The notes under the pieces were generated by a model that saw nothing but the letters and a program-made list of their open reading frames with translations, was not told where the DNA came from and made no database searches. Both the position numbers and the translations under genes were made by a program. DNA of 63,106 nt, filler included, from Candidatus Eiseniibacteriota bacterium (GTDB lineage Bacteria > Orphanbacterota > Orphanbacteria > Orphanbacterales > Orphanbacteraceae): assembly GCA_043809585.1 (NCBI GenBank). It is 9 parts of 8 records of this genome, joined end to end, with 100 filler letters (N's around TTAATTAATTAA, not from the genome) between each part and the next. Parts side by side here need not be neighbours in the genome. Positions count along the whole stretch, not along the records: positions 1 to 3,761 come from JBDROZ010000007.1; 8 more parts are not named here. One strand, 5' to 3'. Of this stretch, positions 1 to 60,367 are shown piece after piece (positions within the stretch are counted from its first letter, which is position 1; each line of letters begins with the position of its first letter).

Positions 1-5
1 GACAG

Positions 6-35
6 AAAAGCCCGGCCGGGGATTCCCGGCCGGGC
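6..35 (-). terminator. Intrinsic terminator after the cohesin-like/CTD gene
   Basis: 11-bp perfect GC stem (10-20/25-35) with a 4-nt loop, followed by TTTTC on the minus strand. Confidence 0.75.
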
Positions 36-74
36 ACGATCTCGATCGCGCGCTTCACGCGCGCCCGTTCTTCC

Positions 75-842
75 CTACCGAATCAGCGTCATCCGCTTCG
101 ACTCGGAGAACTCCCCCGCCTGAAGACGGTAGAAGTACACCCCCGAGGAGACCGAAGCCCCCCCGTCGTCCCGGCCGTCCCACGTCACCGCGTGGGATCC
201 CGCCGAAAGGGCGCCCGACGAAAGCGTCCGCACCCGCTGACCGCTCACGTTGTAAACCTCCAGGCTCACCGGAACCCGATTCGAAAGATCAAAACGGATC
301 TCCGTCACCGGATTGAACGGGTTCGGCACGTTCCCGAGAAGACGCGTCGTCGTCGGGACCGCCCCCCCCGCCGTCACCGGGTTCTCGTAGGAAACCTGCG
401 TCTCCACCTGCCACGAATCATCCGCCGTCTGGAAAGAGACGATCCGAACCTCCGCATCGCTCTCGTCCACCACGCGGAATCGAATCACCCCGACTTCCCC
501 CTCCGGAGAGCTCACCGCCCCCGTCAGGGTCGCCGTCGTCACGTCCACCACCGAACGGTCCGTCCGGTCGAAAGGACCGAGTACCAGCGGATCCGCGAAG
601 AGGTCCCCCGCCGTGAAGTCCACGAACTCCAGGCCCGCACCATGCTCCACGTCCACGTGAACCGCGTTCACCGCGACGAAGCCCTGTCCCCCCACCCGCA
701 CTTCCAGGTAGGGCGAGTCTTTCGTAAGGGCGCCGTCCATGCCGCCCGCCGTCTTCACATACGGGCTCACTCCCCCATTCACCCCGGCCGACGCCGCGGA
801 GACCAGAAGGAGACTCGTCATCAAGGCCAACAAGATCTTCAT
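75..842 (-). CDS. Secreted protein: signal peptide, cohesin-like beta domain, FlgD-Ig/T9SS-like C-terminal domain
   Basis: Signal peptide MKILLALMTSLLLVSAASA; C-terminus NVPNPFNPVTEIRF..VYNVSGQRVRTL..WDGRDDGG..SSGVYFYRL is the classic FlgD_ig/CTD pattern; middle domain has GLEFV..GDL and GEVGVIRFRV, cohesin-like (tentative); AGGAG RBS. Confidence 0.8.
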   Translation of the reverse strand: MKILLALMTSLLLVSAASAGVNGGVSPYVKTAGGMDGALTKDSPYLEVRVGGQGFVAVNAVHVDVEHGAGLEFVDFTAGDLFADPLVLGPFDRTDRSVVDVTTATLTGAVSSPEGEVGVIRFRVVDESDAEVRIVSFQTADDSWQVETQVSYENPVTAGGAVPTTTRLLGNVPNPFNPVTEIRFDLSNRVPVSLEVYNVSGQRVRTLSSGALSAGSHAVTWDGRDDGGASVSSGVYFYRLQAGEFSESKRMTLIR

Positions 843-864
843 CTCTCTTCTCCTCCTCTCGCCT

Positions 865-3363
865 CTACGGGCACTGGGCGGCGGCGGCCAGGAACGACAG
901 GTATTTCGCCGTGTCGAAGAAGTTCACCACGCCGTCCGCGCTGTTGTTCAGGTTGCCGCAATAACCCGTCCCCGCGTTCAGCGCGGGCAGGAACAGGAAC
1001 GTGTCGAAGAAGTTGACCTCTCCGTCCCCGGTGAAGTCCGGGCTCTTCATCTCCGCCGACGCGCCGCCCGCCAGGGTCACCGACCCCACCGAGCAAGTCA
1101 GGTCGACGGTCCCACAGCCGCCGGCGTTCGTCACCTCGATCACGCACCGTCCGTCGGCGTCCGTCGGGGCATCGCCGCTGAAGACGGCCGTTCCCGACCC
1201 GCTCCCGCAGAAGATGATGTCCTTCCCGAGAGAGGAAACGCCGCTGGCCGTAACCTGGATCGCGGAACCGGGCACGCCGGCCAGCGGGAGTCCCGCGCCG
1301 TCCAGGAGGGTGACGACGATGGTCATGGTCGAGTCGCCGCTCCCGTCGGGCGACAGCACCAGATCGTCGTTCACGGCGATCGAGGAGAGATAGGGATCAC
1401 AGGAGATGGAACTCTCCACGGGAACCGTCGTGATGAAAGGGATCGCGTTGAACGACGTGACCGTGAGCGTCAAGTCCTCTCCCTCGGGCAGCGTCCCGAC
1501 GACGGATATGCTGGCGCTCCCGCCCCCGTCGGTGAACGCCGACCCGAAGTACGCGCCGTTGTACGAGAGCGCACAGAGGGCTCCGGGCACGCCGGCCACG
1601 GAGACCTCGAAGGCCGTCGCGTCCGGCTCGATGTTGTCCGCGTGGGTCACCGCGAGGGAAGACGGCGTGTCGGTCCGCACCCGCACCGACGGATCGCCGA
1701 AGATGATCCACGTTCGGAACATGTTGATCCCGTCGGCGCCGTACTCGTCCATCATCCGGCACGAGCCGTTGAAGGCGAGACCGCCCATGGTCCGCTTCGC
1801 CTCCGCCACGAGGAGGTCGTTCATCTCGTCCTGGCCGCACATGGGGGAGTTCCACGATTGGTTGATCGACGACGCGTACATCGCGATCGCCCCCGTCGGC
1901 GTGGAGCCGTTGGTGGCCCGGAGCCACGCCTCGGCGAAGCAGGCGCCGTAGGAGAAGTCGCCGTTCACGCAGGCCACGCTGAAGATGAACGGGAGCATGT
2001 TGTTGTTGACGAGACTGTTCACGTGGCTGACCGAGAATCCGGTCGAGCTCCAGGCCAGGGTCGAGCCGTGGCCGCAGTAGTTGATGATGCTCCGGCCCTG
2101 GTTCAGTGCCGTCGTCACCTGGGCGGCGGTCCCGTAGGGATCGTAAATACCGTCCACCAGCGTGTAGGTGAACCCGAGCAGGTCGGTCCGGATGTTGCCG
2201 ATGTGGACGTTATCGTACTCCCCGTCGTCTCCGGGACCCTGGTTCGAGGCGATACCGACGCCCCTGTGGTACCAGTCGCCGGCCGGCATCGGATCACGCT
2301 CGTAGGTGACCGTCCGCGCCACCTGGGTCTGCACATGGGAGACCGTGCTCGCCGAGAAGCGCCCGACGAAGATCTCCGGATAGCTGTCGGTTCCCGCCAG
2401 CAGCGCGTAGGACGGGTCCGACTCGCCGCCCGCATAGGTGGGCGTGGCGATCTGGGCCAGGTCGCCCACGAGGAGGACGAAGGCCAGGTCGCGGGTGTTG
2501 TAGAAACCCTGGATGTAGTTCTTGATCGCCGTCGAGTTGTTGCCGATCGTGGAGACGTCCACCATGGTCGTCTTCACGCCCATCTGGTTCTTCCAGTCCA
2601 CCATGGGCTGCATTTCGGCCATGAAGGCGCCGTCGGAGACGATCAGCATCTCCCCCACTTCCCCGACCGGGGCGTAGCGGGTCTCGCTGAAGTTCAGGAA
2701 ATGATCCCGGTAGATCTGGTAGAACTCGGCGTTCATCCGGTCCCGGCGGTTCGCTTCGAGAACGTTGATCTCGCCCGCGCCCGATGTCGTCACCTCCACG
2801 ACCATTTGGGTGTAGATCCGGAGGGTCTGGGTCGCCGGGTTGTACTGGAACGGCTGGGCCACCACGCAGAGGCCCCGGAAATCGCGCAGGATGTAAGGAT
2901 CCCGGGCCCACACGAGATCCCGCGGATACCACTGGTCGCCCGCGTAGAACGGATCGAACGTGTAGGGCACGTCGGCGGGATCGTTGGTCCGGTCGAAGAC
3001 CCCCTTCGAAGGCGCCACCGGCACGCCGTGGATCTCCTCGTACGACGAGGAGACGACGCGGATCTCCATCTTGGCGTCGTCGGGAATGATCACGCTCCGG
3101 GCGACGTGGGGCAAATCGGGCATCCCCGCCTCTTCGATGGGGCTCTCCCCCGGGAGGGTGATCAGATTCCATGGCTCGCCGGCGATGTCCACCGTCGAAC
3201 GTTCGAAGGCGCCGATCTCGAACTCGAGCAGGATCGTCTGTCCGCTCGACTCGAGGACGCGCACCGCGAGTTCCTCTCCGCCGGCACCGACGGTCACCTT
3301 CTCGGCGAACCCGGGCACCGCGACGAGGAGCAACGCGGCCGTGAGTAGCGCTAGCCGTTTCAT
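865..3363 (-). CDS. Gingipain-like cysteine peptidase (C25) with propeptide, Ig domains and a C-terminal dockerin-like module
   Basis: Start at MKRLALL (AGGAGG RBS, signal peptide); C25 motifs FVLLVGD, EIFVGRFS, NYCGHGS (His), SVACVNG (Cys), IFGDPS; tail DFTGDGEVNFFD...NSADGVVNFFD. Confidence 0.92.
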   Translation of the reverse strand: MKRLALLTAALLLVAVPGFAEKVTVGAGGEELAVRVLESSGQTILLEFEIGAFERSTVDIAGEPWNLITLPGESPIEEAGMPDLPHVARSVIIPDDAKMEIRVVSSSYEEIHGVPVAPSKGVFDRTNDPADVPYTFDPFYAGDQWYPRDLVWARDPYILRDFRGLCVVAQPFQYNPATQTLRIYTQMVVEVTTSGAGEINVLEANRRDRMNAEFYQIYRDHFLNFSETRYAPVGEVGEMLIVSDGAFMAEMQPMVDWKNQMGVKTTMVDVSTIGNNSTAIKNYIQGFYNTRDLAFVLLVGDLAQIATPTYAGGESDPSYALLAGTDSYPEIFVGRFSASTVSHVQTQVARTVTYERDPMPAGDWYHRGVGIASNQGPGDDGEYDNVHIGNIRTDLLGFTYTLVDGIYDPYGTAAQVTTALNQGRSIINYCGHGSTLAWSSTGFSVSHVNSLVNNNMLPFIFSVACVNGDFSYGACFAEAWLRATNGSTPTGAIAMYASSINQSWNSPMCGQDEMNDLLVAEAKRTMGGLAFNGSCRMMDEYGADGINMFRTWIIFGDPSVRVRTDTPSSLAVTHADNIEPDATAFEVSVAGVPGALCALSYNGAYFGSAFTDGGGSASISVVGTLPEGEDLTLTVTSFNAIPFITTVPVESSISCDPYLSSIAVNDDLVLSPDGSGDSTMTIVVTLLDGAGLPLAGVPGSAIQVTASGVSSLGKDIIFCGSGSGTAVFSGDAPTDADGRCVIEVTNAGGCGTVDLTCSVGSVTLAGGASAEMKSPDFTGDGEVNFFDTFLFLPALNAGTGYCGNLNNSADGVVNFFDTAKYLSFLAAAAQCP

Positions 3364-3544
3364 AAGAGCCTCCTGCGGCCTTAAGGGGCGGCCGCCGCTG
3401 GAAGAAACGCAGCGATCCATCGAATCGCACCGTACCTGCGAGTGGTTCCGCCTGGCCCTCACCTTATCCGTTCCGCCCGGCGTGAAACCGACTCCATACC
3501 CTCCGGATCTACACCATTTCCGTAATTAAGTTAACTCTGTTCTC

Positions 3545-3575
3545 AGAAGAAGACGGACTCCTCCCGGAGCCCGTC
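3545..3575 (-). terminator. Possible terminator after the upstream CTD paralog
   Basis: Minus-strand hairpin GACGGGCTCC-ggga-GGAGTCCGTC followed by TTCTTCT. Confidence 0.45.
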
Positions 3576-3619
3576 CATCGTCCGTCAGGTCTCTCGTCCG
3601 CTCCAATCGCCCGCCCCCG

Positions 3620-3761
3620 TCAACGAATCAGCGTCATCCGCTTCGACTCGGAGAACTCCCCCGCCTGAAGACGGTAGAAGTACACCCCCGAGGAGACCGA
3701 AGCCCCCCCGTCGTCCCGGCCGTCCCACGTCACCGCGTGGGATCCCGCCGAAAGGGCGCCC
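3620..3761 (-). CDS. 3' end of a second FlgD-Ig/CTD protein, truncated by the contig end
   Basis: 3624-3761 is identical to 79-216 (138 bp) and encodes ...WDGRDDGGASVSSGVYFYRLQAGEFSESKRMTLIR; stop is TGA rather than TAG. Confidence 0.85.
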
Positions 3762-4001: not shown

Positions 4002-4060
4002 GAGAATAGGGACAGTCACCTGTTTCCCGGGGCAGGCTCCGCGGGGATGATAATCATGAT

Positions 4061-4236
4061 CGGCGGGGCAGGGGATCGGAGGAGGGAGGGGGATGGGGCG
4101 GACTGGAACGCTCGTCGTGCCGCAGGGGAGAAAGCCCTCCCATTCTCCGGACTCGCGGCGACTGCGGGGCGGAGGTCAAGAAATCGCTCCCCGGTTATGC
4201 CCCGCCCCCTCCCGATACCGATCCCCCGTCCCGCCG
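4061..4236 (+). ncRNA. Putative structured non-coding element, copy 1 (family unknown)
   Basis: Long closing stem; core GACTGGAACGCTCGTCGTGCCGC..CCCTCCCATTCTCCGG..CCGGTTAT shared with 13361-13531; G-U pairs favour the + strand; GATAAT just upstream. Confidence 0.5.
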
Positions 4237-4276: not shown

Positions 4277-5059
4277 CTACTCGTACTTCAGCTCCGACCC
4301 GAACATCGAATGAGGAATCAGGAAGATCACGAACGTCACCACCGCCGCTCCGAAGATCCACCACCTCGGGTGTCCCCGCCCCCGCATCTTCAAGAGCGCG
4401 ACCCCCCACGCCAAGAACGCGATCAGCGTCTTGTTGTCCGTCAGGTCCCATCCGTAGGGGACCCCGGTCCAGAGCGCGCCGAACGCGTACTTCTGCACGA
4501 TCGGCCCGAAGATCATTCCCCCGAGCGTGAGGAGCGCCGCCGACCAGAGCGCGTAGACCCGCATCTTCTCGCCGTTCCGGAGCGCCTCCAAACCCGCCCG
4601 GTTCGAGAAGAGCATCCCGGCGAACATGGCCAGGATGTGGGGAAGGAGAACCGCCGCCGGCACCCCCCCCTTGAAGCGGGCGACCGTCGTTCCGTGATTC
4701 GGCAACATCCCCGACTCCGCGCCGTCCCGGATCACCACCTTGTATTCCAGCTTCCCCGCCGGCGGTTGGTGAGGGAGCGCCGCCGTCAGCCGGCCGTCCC
4801 CCTCCCGGGACATGTCGATCGACCGGAACTGCTCGGTCGCCCTGTAACGCCGCCAGAACAGGCGCCCCGTCGCCTCCGGACCCGCCCCGTCCACCACCAC
4901 CGGCAGGTCCCCTTCCCCTTCGTGGGACCGGAGCAGTTCGGCGTGGGCCTGGTACCCGCCGACCCCCGCGGTCGCTTGCTCCGGGTACGTGGGCCCGGTT
5001 GTTCTCTGGTAGTAGGCCGCCCCCACTGTGACGAGGAGCGCGAGGATCCAGTGCAGCAT
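4277..5059 (-). CDS. Conserved hypothetical membrane protein
   Basis: N-terminal TM (AYYQRTTGPTYP), soluble domain, then about four TM helices with QKYAFGALWTGVPYGWDLTDNKTL; start at MLHW (GGAGG RBS). Confidence 0.75.
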   Translation of the reverse strand: MLHWILALLVTVGAAYYQRTTGPTYPEQATAGVGGYQAHAELLRSHEGEGDLPVVVDGAGPEATGRLFWRRYRATEQFRSIDMSREGDGRLTAALPHQPPAGKLEYKVVIRDGAESGMLPNHGTTVARFKGGVPAAVLLPHILAMFAGMLFSNRAGLEALRNGEKMRVYALWSAALLTLGGMIFGPIVQKYAFGALWTGVPYGWDLTDNKTLIAFLAWGVALLKMRGRGHPRWWIFGAAVVTFVIFLIPHSMFGSELKYE

Positions 5060-57442: not shown

Positions 57443-60367
57443 ATGGGAATGGCTTTGAGATCGCGACCTTTCGTCGCTCTCTCGGCGGCCCTTTGGCTGA
57501 TGGCCGGTTCGGCGGCGGCCTTCGTGCCCACGCCGGATCACGACACCTATGAAATCTTCCTGGCTGGTGAGCGGACCGCGATGGAGTGGCGCACCGTTTC
57601 CCTGGCGGAGGCGAAGGCGTTTTCCGGCGCCCCGGATTTCGCCGCCCGTTACGGCGGATCTTGGCGGGTGCAGTGGAACGACGCCACCGCCACGGCCCAC
57701 CAGCTCTTCGGGAGCGGTACCTCGGTGACGAGCGCTCCGGTGACGACCGCCGGAGAGGCGGAGCGGATCGCCCGCCGGTTTCTCGGGGCGAATCCGGGCC
57801 TTTTCGGAACCGTCGACGCCGGTCTCGAAACGCGAACTTCGACACGGGCGGCGGGGAAGTGGTCGATCGTCTTCGGCCAGACCCGTGAGGGTATTCCGGT
57901 GCGGGGGGGACGGGCCCATGTCGTCATGACCGAAGAGGGCCGCCTCTTCGGGGCCGGCTCCGACCTCCATTCGGACATCTCCGTCTCCACGGTCCCCTCG
58001 ATCACCGGGGAGGAGGCGACGGCGATCGCCGCTTCCGATCTCGGCTTCAACGACGCCACGGACGCCGCCCAGGGCGCGGCCCTCGAGATCCTTCCGGTCG
58101 TGGAGGGCGCGGCGGCCACGTACCGGCTCGTCTACAACGTGCAGCTCCGGATGGAGAATCCCCTCGGTCTCTGGGAGACCCTGGTGGACGCCTCCTCGGG
58201 CGAGATCGTCCGGCGGGTGAACTTGATCCGTTTCTTCGACGTGAACGGCAACGTGGACGCCGACCTCTACGATCCCCACTACTGCGGGAATCCCCTGGTC
58301 CTCCGGGAGATGCCGAACCATTACGTCACCCTCTCGGGGGTCGGCACCGCGACGACCGGCGACGACGGGAACTTCACCGCCACCGGCGCGTCGGGGACCG
58401 TTTCGTGGTCCGCCCTGCTCCAGGGGATCTGGGCGAACGTGCAGAACTACTCCGGCGCCGAGGCGTACGAGTCGGGAAGCGTGACGGAGGGGCAGTTCCT
58501 GCAGGTCCATTGGGACAACACGAACTCCCGGGCGGACGAGCGCACCTGCTACTACCACCAGAGCGTCGTTCACGACTACATTAGGGACGTCGATTCCGGT
58601 CCGGGGCTCGCCGACATCGACTACCAGATGCTCGTCACCGTGGCGCGGACCGACGGCTACTGCCCCGGCAACGCCTGGTACGACTACTCGGGCATCAACT
58701 TCTGCGTGGGCAACGCGAGCTACGGGAACACGGGCGAGATGGCCGACGTGATCTACCACGAGTTCGGCCACGGAATCACGCACCGGATCTACAACGTCAC
58801 CGGAAATCCCCCCGGCGACCTCCACGAGGGGAACTCGGATGTCATAGCGAACCTGCTCACCGGCGAGTCGATCATCGGCCTCGGGTTCTACCTGAACAAC
58901 TGCACGTCGGGCATCCGGAACTCGGACAACAATCTGCAGTATCCGGCCGACTGGACGGGCCAGAACCACTACAGCGGGCAGATCATCGCCGGCGTCGTGT
59001 GGGACGCGTGGCAGGAGCTGAAGATCAGCCTCGGCGACGCGGCCGCCCTGGACCAGATCGGCAATGTCTGGCACTACGGACGGTCGCTCATGCTGCCGGA
59101 GACGCAGCCGGACCAGGTGCTCTCCATGCTGATCGCCGACGACGACGACGGCAACCTCGTGAACGGAACCCCCCACTACGCCGAGATCTGCCAGGGGGCC
59201 GCGAACCACGGCTTCGACTGCGCGGGCCTGATCGGGACGTCCCCGGAGATCGCCTACTCGCCGGTCTCCTTCGACGAGACCCTGAGCGCGGGCAGCCAGA
59301 CCACGGCCGGGCTCTACATCGAGAACATCGGAACCGGCGTTCTCACCTACTCGCTGGCCGGCGTGCAGACCACCCTCGCCAAGGCGACGGCCGCGACCGA
59401 CGCCGCCCGGGGGGCCGGGAGCCGGGAGATGTCCACGGACAACTCCCGCACCCTCGAGTTCCTCCGCAGGAGCGCGTCCGCGGGCAAGACCGCGGCGGTG
59501 ATCTTCTCCGACGACATGGAAGGGGGCGTGAACGGCTGGACCACGACGGTCCACGACGGAACGTCCTCGGACCTCTGGCATCAGGTCACCACGAACGCCA
59601 ACTCGCCGACCCACTCGTGGTGGTGCGGGCTGGACGGGAGCGGTACCTACGACACGGGCGCCCGGATCTCGAACGCCCTCGTCTCGCCGAGCATCGATCT
59701 CTCGAGCGGCACCCCCCCCCTCACGCTCGAATTCTACGAGAACTACACCACCGAGTCGGGATGGGACTTCTGCAACGTGGACATTTCCACCAACGGCGGG
59801 GGGACCTGGACGAACCTCCGGACCGCGTCCGGATCGAGCGGCGGGTGGACCCTGTCGTCCGTCGATCTCTCCGCCTATGCGGGGGGGACGGTCAATATCC
59901 GGTTCCACTTCGACACGACCGACGGCCTCTACAACAGCTATCCCGGCTGGTTCGTCGACGACGTGTCGGTGAACGCCACCGGCGTTTCCTGGCTCGTCTT
60001 CGCCCCGATGAACGGCGCGGTGCCGGCGGGAGAGACGGACACGGTGGAGGTCACGTTCGACGCCGGAGCCCTCGCGCCCGGCGACTACGAGGCGAACATC
60101 CGGATCACCTCGAACGACCAGTCGAACCCGACCGAGATCGTTCCGGTCGCGCTTCATGTCGGGGGCGGGATCGATCCGTTCTACTCGACGATCGCCGTGA
60201 ACGACGATCTGATGCTGTCGCCGGATGGCGGCGGCGATTCGACGATGACCATCGTCGTCACCGTCAAGGACGGGAACGACGACCCGATCGTGGGCGTGCC
60301 CGCCGGGGACGTGGCCGTCACGCTGAGCGGCACCTCGTACATCGGGGCGAGCGTCCGGTTCTGCCAG
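57443..60367 (+). CDS. Secreted M4/M36 (thermolysin/fungalysin-like) zinc metallopeptidase, multidomain, truncated by the contig end
   Basis: Signal peptide; FTP/PepSY-like propeptide (LVDASSGEIV); NAWY, YHEFGHG, LHEGNSD; MAM/InhA-like domain (FSDDMEGG..GWFVDDV); last ~65 aa match the gingipain C-terminal module. Confidence 0.9.

Follow-up and report, generated by a model that had tools for sequence, protein, structure and literature searches.

A cellulosome-like system has been predicted, from genomes only, for Candidatus Stygibacter of the Cloacimonadota (Williams et al. 2021; PMC8542988). The present analysis concerns a comparable locus in a window of 63,106 nucleotides (the whole stretch of DNA analysed) from Candidatus Eiseniibacteriota bacterium (GenBank assembly GCA_043809585.1), which is made up of nine contigs from a single binned genome, with N/TTAATTAATTAA linkers between them. 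Its first contig, C7 (positions 1-3761), carries a gene for a gingipain-type protease with a dockerin-like tail (gingipain-1) and, behind it, a gene for a small putative anchor protein (gene A) that combines a cohesin with a type IX secretion system (T9SS) sorting domain. The end of gene A recurs at the other end of the contig, upstream of the gingipain gene, where a second anchor gene (A') probably terminates.

The Stygibacter system is alike in that its dockerin-tagged secreted enzymes include gingipain-like C25 and S8 peptidases, and in that a cohesin protein with a T9SS-type C-terminal domain (CTD) is suggested as the link between the complex and the surface of the cell itself, again in an uncultured bacterium of the Fibrobacteres-Chlorobi-Bacteroidetes group. 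The protein presented there is one scaffoldin of 3,755 aa with tandem cohesins and carbohydrate-binding modules, whereas gene A encodes 255 aa with one cohesin and none of these modules; unlike there, moreover, the anchor is encoded here directly behind individual protease genes and apparently exists in several near-identical copies, and only proteases were found as enzyme partners. This kind of system is thus already predicted for Cloacimonadota, and the present locus is a good example of it rather than a new kind. A literature search for Eisenbacteria together with dockerin returned no paper.

The gingipains RgpB and Kgp of Porphyromonas gingivalis have their own sorting domain, with PorU as the sortase; here, in contrast, the protease lacks such a domain, which is found instead on a distinct cohesin adaptor. 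In Clostridium (Acetivibrio) thermocellum, the anchor of OlpA and OlpC is a surface-layer homology module on a Gram-positive wall, where the present system would use an outer membrane and a T9SS sorting domain. These single-cohesin anchoring proteins (PDB 3ul4, 4dh2) show 12-16% sequence identity, and their partners are glycoside hydrolases where those of the present system are proteases. Non-cellulosomal cohesin-dockerin pairs, which were reportedly treated by Peer and colleagues in 2009, differ as well, since those of Clostridium perfringens (GH84C and GH33 cohesins 2w1n, 2vo8 and 2jh2) and Archaeoglobus fulgidus (2xdh) have neither a T9SS link nor a pairing of enzyme and anchor genes. The present locus shows how a diderm may display proteases that have no outer-membrane sorting signal of their own by means of a small cohesin adaptor exported by the T9SS.

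The repeated end of the anchor gene

The repeat at the end of C7 is probably the 3' end of A', a second and near-identical anchor gene, within one locus of the order M36-a (an M36-like metalloprotease), A', gingipain-1, A and gingipain-2, which would serve the surface display of dockerin-tagged proteases and whose copies would be homogenised by gene conversion. The features on which this reading draws are as follows.

1 to 141, minus strand: junction 141-mer K, with the last 63 coding bases of gene A, TAG, and a 3' flank with a terminator hairpin at 35-10
75 to 842, minus strand: gene A, 255 aa; signal peptide, cohesin (about residues 20-160), T9SS type A sorting domain/FlgD_ig (about 170-255), TAG stop
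79 to 216, minus strand: repeat copy 1, the last 46 codons of gene A minus the final base
843 to 864, minus strand: spacer of 22 nt from gingipain stop to gene A start, with a GGAGG ribosome-binding site
865 to 3363, minus strand: gingipain-1, 832 aa; signal peptide, C25 propeptide, catalytic and Ig-like domains, Big_1-like domain at 1054-1419, dockerin-like module at 868-1068
3364 to 3619, minus strand: intergenic, from A' stop to gingipain-1 start; weak terminator-like hairpin at 3428-3412, GGAGG before the ATG at 3363
3620 to 3761, minus strand: putative 3' end of A', with TGA stop, 46 codons and one extra base, truncated by the contig end
3624 to 3761, minus strand: repeat copy 2, from the repeat search
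57443 to 60367, plus strand: M36-a on contig C15, 975 aa seen; the contig end cuts inside a Big-like domain

A sequence-only reading had claimed that 138 bp at 79-216 recur directly upstream of the gingipain and diverge exactly at the last codon and stop, and this was borne out by both a repeat search and the two translations. Positions 79-216 and 3624-3761 are 100% identical over 138 nt and form the sole two-copy family, at a spacing of 3545. The copies differ at 78 (c) and 3623 (a), which on the minus strand gives CGG-TAG against CGT-TGA; the last Arg codon (CGG and CGT both encode Arg) is thus where identity ends, at its third base, and the minus-strand translations of 3620-3760 and 75-215 have 46 residues alike followed by a stop (TGA against TAG). 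That identity stops at the stop codon may be explained by homology stopping there. Elsewhere in the genome (4.24 Mb), full identity to the repeat occurs only where contig ends overlap (C95:33201-33341 and C70:1-141), and the remaining sorting-domain genes reach at most 77% identity to the repeat over alignments of at least 100 nt; therefore, the identity is not due to chance. The same reading placed a CTD gene in the same orientation before the gingipain, with the contig breaking inside the repeat, and both points agree with what was found: position 3761 is the last base of C7, followed by the linker, and the fragment is an in-frame 3' end with its own stop, oriented as gingipain-1 and lying 257 nt upstream of the gingipain start.

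The assignment of gene A to cohesin plus T9SS sorting domain, also claimed from the sequence, was supported by the profiles of the sorting domain and, for the cohesin, by family members and fold. Its N-terminus is a hydrophobic signal, and its C-terminal part is matched by TIGR04183 (36.9 bits, cut-off 23; residues 173-251 of 255) and by FlgD_ig (PF13860; 52.5 bits, cut-off 27), with PF18962 at 23.2 bits, under its cut-off of 27. A Pfam scan of the N-terminal domain alone gave no match even at E 10, PF00963 included; PF00963 matches 32 of the 38 aligned members of the gene A family at E 0.01 or better (best 5e-9), the family profile matches cohesin 5g5d_A at E 0.0057, and the domain shows the nine-stranded beta-sandwich of the cohesin fold. 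Homologues of the cohesin part number 35, of about 250 aa, and the named ones belong to Candidatus Eisenbacteria. From the 22-nt spacing, gingipain-1 and gene A look co-transcribed. Two proteins on contigs of about 1 kb, P0002 and P0003, were considered as A' and rejected because A' is identical to A over its last 46 residues, of which they differ at 3 and 4, respectively; their identities to A are 85% and 84% by BLASTP over the cohesin part, and 87% each over the aligned whole protein.

Gingipain-1 itself is matched above cut-offs by PF08126 (108.8 bits), PF01364 (193.9 bits) and PF03785 (42.4 bits), with a weak match to a Big_1-like domain, and its translation contains CGHGS and SVACVNG stretches, which may correspond to the catalytic His/Cys dyad. 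It has no sorting domain and ends in a dockerin-like module, in keeping with the earlier description of a protease-dockerin unit. Dockerins are characterized by two calcium-binding loops of the form D-x-N/T-x-D-G-x-V-N-x-x-D, each followed by a helix. The 65-residue tail has two D-x-x-x-D-G-x-V-N-F-F-D loop-helix repeats, DFTGDGEVNFFD and NNSADGVVNFFD, each with a predicted helix after it, in agreement with this motif; they are conserved in 19 sequences, in which D16, G19, D20, D27, F55, D57 and T58 are invariant. Gingipain-2 (C70), an S8 subtilase (C52) and two 235-aa proteins (C23 and C66) carry this tail at their ends as well.

Relatives, assembly structure and homogenisation

Comparison with related genomes and metagenome contigs showed a dockerin-tailed gene directly upstream, on the same strand, of the cohesin-sorting-domain gene at all 12 distinct related loci with upstream sequence. 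Four are of M36-a type (L013, L111, L113, L115), four of M36-b type (L011, L012, L112, and L114, which equals L098), two of gingipain-1 type (L116, L099) and one of S8 type (L096). At the twelfth, on metagenome contig L097, the upstream gene is truncated by the contig start, and the order is dockerin end, cohesin-sorting domain and the N-terminus of a gingipain that is possibly of type 2. When metagenome contigs of the Joint Genome Institute (JGI) were searched, the cohesin profile found 4 loci only, and the exact 35-nt junction pattern had 0 matches. The earlier notion of an array of protease-dockerin and cohesin-CTD units is supported in part, by the pairs in 12 of 12 relatives and the order on L097; the cohesin of the upstream unit is a matter of inference.

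With regard to the assembly, overlaps of exactly 141 nt between a contig end and another contig are frequent in the genome and mark the product of a k=141 de Bruijn assembler, probably a MEGAHIT-like one. The 141-mer K is at once the start of C7, the end of C95 and, in reverse complement, the start of C70; past it, C70 and reverse-complement C95 stay alike for another 16 bases (one mismatch) before they part. Among the four M36-a loci, three have downstream flanks that match C70 alone, from its position 4930 onward; among the three M36-b loci, two have flanks that match reverse-complement C95 alone, from 844 onward. Two flanks match neither contig, and there are no cross matches; therefore, two loci would end with K, one continuing into C70 and the other into C95, and the three-way junction at 1-141 would arise because these loci have one gene end in common. 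The last 141-mer of C7 (3621-3761) is unique in the bin and ends three bases before the merge node with 79-219, so that C7 probably ends dead in a repeat that a k=141 assembler could not bridge with the reads. C15 (56095-60367) and C35 have a terminal 141-mer in common, the last 141 nt of M36-a being the start of C35 in reverse complement, and no contig in the bin succeeds them. The missing piece would be about 1 kb plus overlaps, and its contig of about 1.3 kb would have been left unbinned because the smallest contig in the bin has 2,023 nt.

Synteny suggests the order C15, gap, reverse-complement C7, C70, with a third anchor copy (A'') expected between C35 and C95, behind the second metalloprotease. 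In the related genome G006, an orthologue of M36-a (67%) lies about 150 nt upstream of an orthologue of gingipain-1 (66%), and gingipain-1 was therefore assigned to the M36-a locus, making M36-a the likely upstream neighbour of A' and gingipain-1. The proposal that the metalloprotease contig joins C7 at its end is accordingly strengthened in part, since synteny favours C15, although C35, with the same terminal 141-mer, is an alternative partner. No link between the ends of C15 and C7 was found in reads or contigs; k=31 contigs from the runs X1-X4 never extend past 3761.

These k=31 contigs have depths of 2-8, which contradict each other and are unusable for copy number or for ranking genes. 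X1 is possibly the source sample; its contigs are independent of the assembler, and the data are perhaps the same. One X1 contig spans 3504-3653 without differences and thereby reaches 30 nt past the 3623/3624 boundary; a second extends from 79, where it begins exactly, to 290, and 292-693 are spanned by another. Both X1 and X2 show A and G at similar depth for position 291, and a variant of 783-933 (X1 and X4) differs only at 880-909, in frame and mostly synonymously, at the end of the dockerin gene. These observations fit at least two anchor copies that are alike over most of their length, and fit strain variation equally well.

Homogenisation was directly observed for the metalloproteases, which bears out in part the suggestion of recent duplication or conversion. 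The proteins on C15 and C35 are 37% identical overall, their last 186 nt differ at three positions only, and their 3' modules are 98% identical in DNA; similarly, the Big-dockerin ends of two M36 genes in G006 are 97.8% identical over 540 nt. Near-identical 3' DNA behind such divergent proteins fits gene conversion. A tree of 12 anchor proteins separates the M36-a from the M36-b anchors of genera g2, g4 and g5 into distinct clades, with 40-50% identity between the two within a genome, whereas the anchors of this genome and of genus g6 group together whatever their neighbour, a pattern that fits concerted evolution in this lineage. The locus thus offers a clear case of within-genome homogenisation of both plug and socket modules. 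Such concerted evolution would also explain why the assemblies of G003, G006, G007 and this genome break at or beside these genes (contig C26 of G008 extends 72 nt past its anchor gene). As the repeat breaks assemblies at the locus in several related genomes, anchor genes are under-counted in binned genomes.

The genera without gingipains have one anchor of their own for each M36 paralogue (L011/L111 in G002, L013/L112 in G005 and L012/L115 in G001), and in G002, the single pair inspected by eye, the dockerin tails differ too. The two anchors of such a genome are no more than 40-50% identical and may form private cohesin-dockerin pairs, unlike the homogenised set here.

Proposed function and competing explanations

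The proposed locus would run from the dockerin-bearing M36-a (C15) through A', the dockerin-bearing gingipain-1 and A to a repeat-rich spacer of about 1 kb and the dockerin-bearing gingipain-2 (C70). Protein A would be exported by Sec, cross the T9SS by means of its sorting domain and be attached by the sortase PorU to the cell surface, where its cohesin would then hold dockerin-tagged C25, M36 and S8 proteases in a calcium-dependent manner. Gene conversion would keep the anchor genes and the Big-dockerin ends of the proteases alike within the genome. Other parts of such a system were detected, including SprA_N (53.4 bits in a frame of 2,058 aa), two PorU (551 and 520 bits, cut-off 420), PorV (62.7 bits, adjoining PorU) and about 158 sorting-domain matches. 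A search for GspD, as a sign of type II secretion as an alternative export route, gave four secretin-like frames, all under the cut-off.

Several observations weigh against this reading. With regard to the tail, PF00404 gave no match at E 10 or better on the 78-residue gingipain-1 tail, and genome-wide it found three other genes, none of them a protease of the locus. The tail profile matched the dockerin region of Ruminococcus bromii Amy12 weakly, at E 0.017, and other dockerins at E 0.4-2.4; hhalign against the canonical dockerins of this genome gave a probability of 23.7%. The structure model of the tail was poor (predicted local distance difference test score 56.7), and the top 6 of the 12 Foldseek matches obtained with this poor model were dockerins, all at E 1.7 or worse. 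With regard to A', a tblastn search across the bin for its cohesin, or for any second copy of the gene A cohesin, returned gene A alone. C7 shows no branching at the place where A has to part from the other copies, and graph pruning or collapse must therefore be assumed. The k=31 depths are contradictory (6-7.6 for gingipain pieces, 5-5.3 for gene A and 2-2.2 for the flank).

A' is visible over 46 codons only, its cohesin being inferred, and in relatives of genus g6 gingipain-1 comes straight after the M36-a dockerin; in G006 and G008 its orthologue lies about 150 and 290 nt behind the upstream dockerin gene, and no anchor gene intervenes. A' would therefore be either an addition in this lineage or a remnant, in the latter case a sorting-domain part left behind by the rearrangement that brought gingipain-1 in, with no functional cohesin gene. 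Such a relic is unlikely, as its frame is intact, with its own stop and no substitution in 138 nt, and both C15 and C35 lead into one missing cassette. Moreover, on L097 a gingipain gene is immediately preceded by a complete cohesin-sorting-domain gene, and the k=31 contigs of X1 are unbranched from 79 to 693 although that run has both 3' flanks. The overlap of the contig end with its own start, at a period of 3545 nt, is also what collapsed tandem repeats produce, and in X1 the k=31 depth is greatest for the gingipain pieces, which would be expected if C7 were a collapsed tandem duplication of gingipain-1 and A, with A' the anchor of the preceding identical unit instead of a metalloprotease partner. 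However, the copies differ in last codon, stop and flanks, none of the relatives compared has tandem copies of gingipain-1, synteny places M36-a upstream, and the X1 depths cannot rank genes; this duplication is regarded as quite improbable.

The chance is smaller still that the upstream gene is an ordinary enzyme whose own T9SS sorting domain was converted by gene A, or that the contig end is a chimeric mis-extension. Genes with sorting domains are common, given the matches counted above, and bases 3654-3761 are supported by one assembly only. On the other hand, no other sorting domain approaches the identity of the two copies (the limit of 77% given above), enzymes of this locus type end in a dockerin and not in a sorting domain in 12 of 12 relatives, and the boundary-crossing k=31 contig extends by 30 nt, the maximum for such a contig. 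The surface-anchor locus with a second gene A' is therefore preferred.

A further and rather doubtful proposal is that the cohesin-sorting-domain protein acts as a secretion signal in trans, the proteases being carried folded through SprA as passengers. The proteases, which have a Sec signal and no T9SS sorting domain, would bind the co-expressed adaptor in the periplasm; an adaptor gene 22 nt behind the protease gene would yield matched amounts, and gene conversion would keep adaptors and dockerins interchangeable, while the 40-50% identical paralogues of g2 and g5 may form private pairs. It has been described that T9SS substrates cross the outer membrane folded (PMC9251779), which leaves room for adaptor-carried protease export. 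Among the matches listed, no paper on passenger export through the T9SS was found; if it were true, it would extend the known cargo of this system.

Additional observations in the genome

The two PorU paralogues are full-length, lie on contig C39 (1357-4836 and 109688-113119) and exceed the NCBIfam cut-off; one stands beside PorV. The S8 subtilase with the dockerin-like tail (L091:2886-5594, C52) has no anchor gene behind it in this genome, and its orthologue (66%) in metagenome locus L096 has a cohesin-sorting-domain gene behind it. The 235-aa paralogues (L092:4134-4838 on C23; L093:4245-4949, minus strand, on C66) are secreted, cysteine-rich, without a Pfam family and extended by a short extra tail beyond the dockerin-like module; they may be non-enzymatic passengers of the system. 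More cohesin-like domains, one above the Pfam cut-off, were found in large proteins (C64:10488-16165 and C109:43638-44853), and three canonical PF00404 dockerins (C106:855-1007, C106:12785-12937 and C88:41444-41644) lie in frames of 1,335-2,451 aa. Together they are a second, separate cohesin-dockerin set.

Another three-way junction in the window is marked by a 141-mer common to the starts of C9 (17377) and C10 (27790) and the end of C16, and many contigs could be scaffolded using such 141-nt overlaps. Finally, a family of dispersed intergenic repeats (about 100-300 nt, 70-95% identical) occurs at 4059-4236 (C8:198-375), C70:335-911, reverse-complement C95:197-752 and on dozens of other contigs. 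These repeats, which resemble miniature inverted-repeat transposable elements or repetitive extragenic palindromic elements, are present on most contigs, often at contig ends, and are a main cause of assembly fragmentation.
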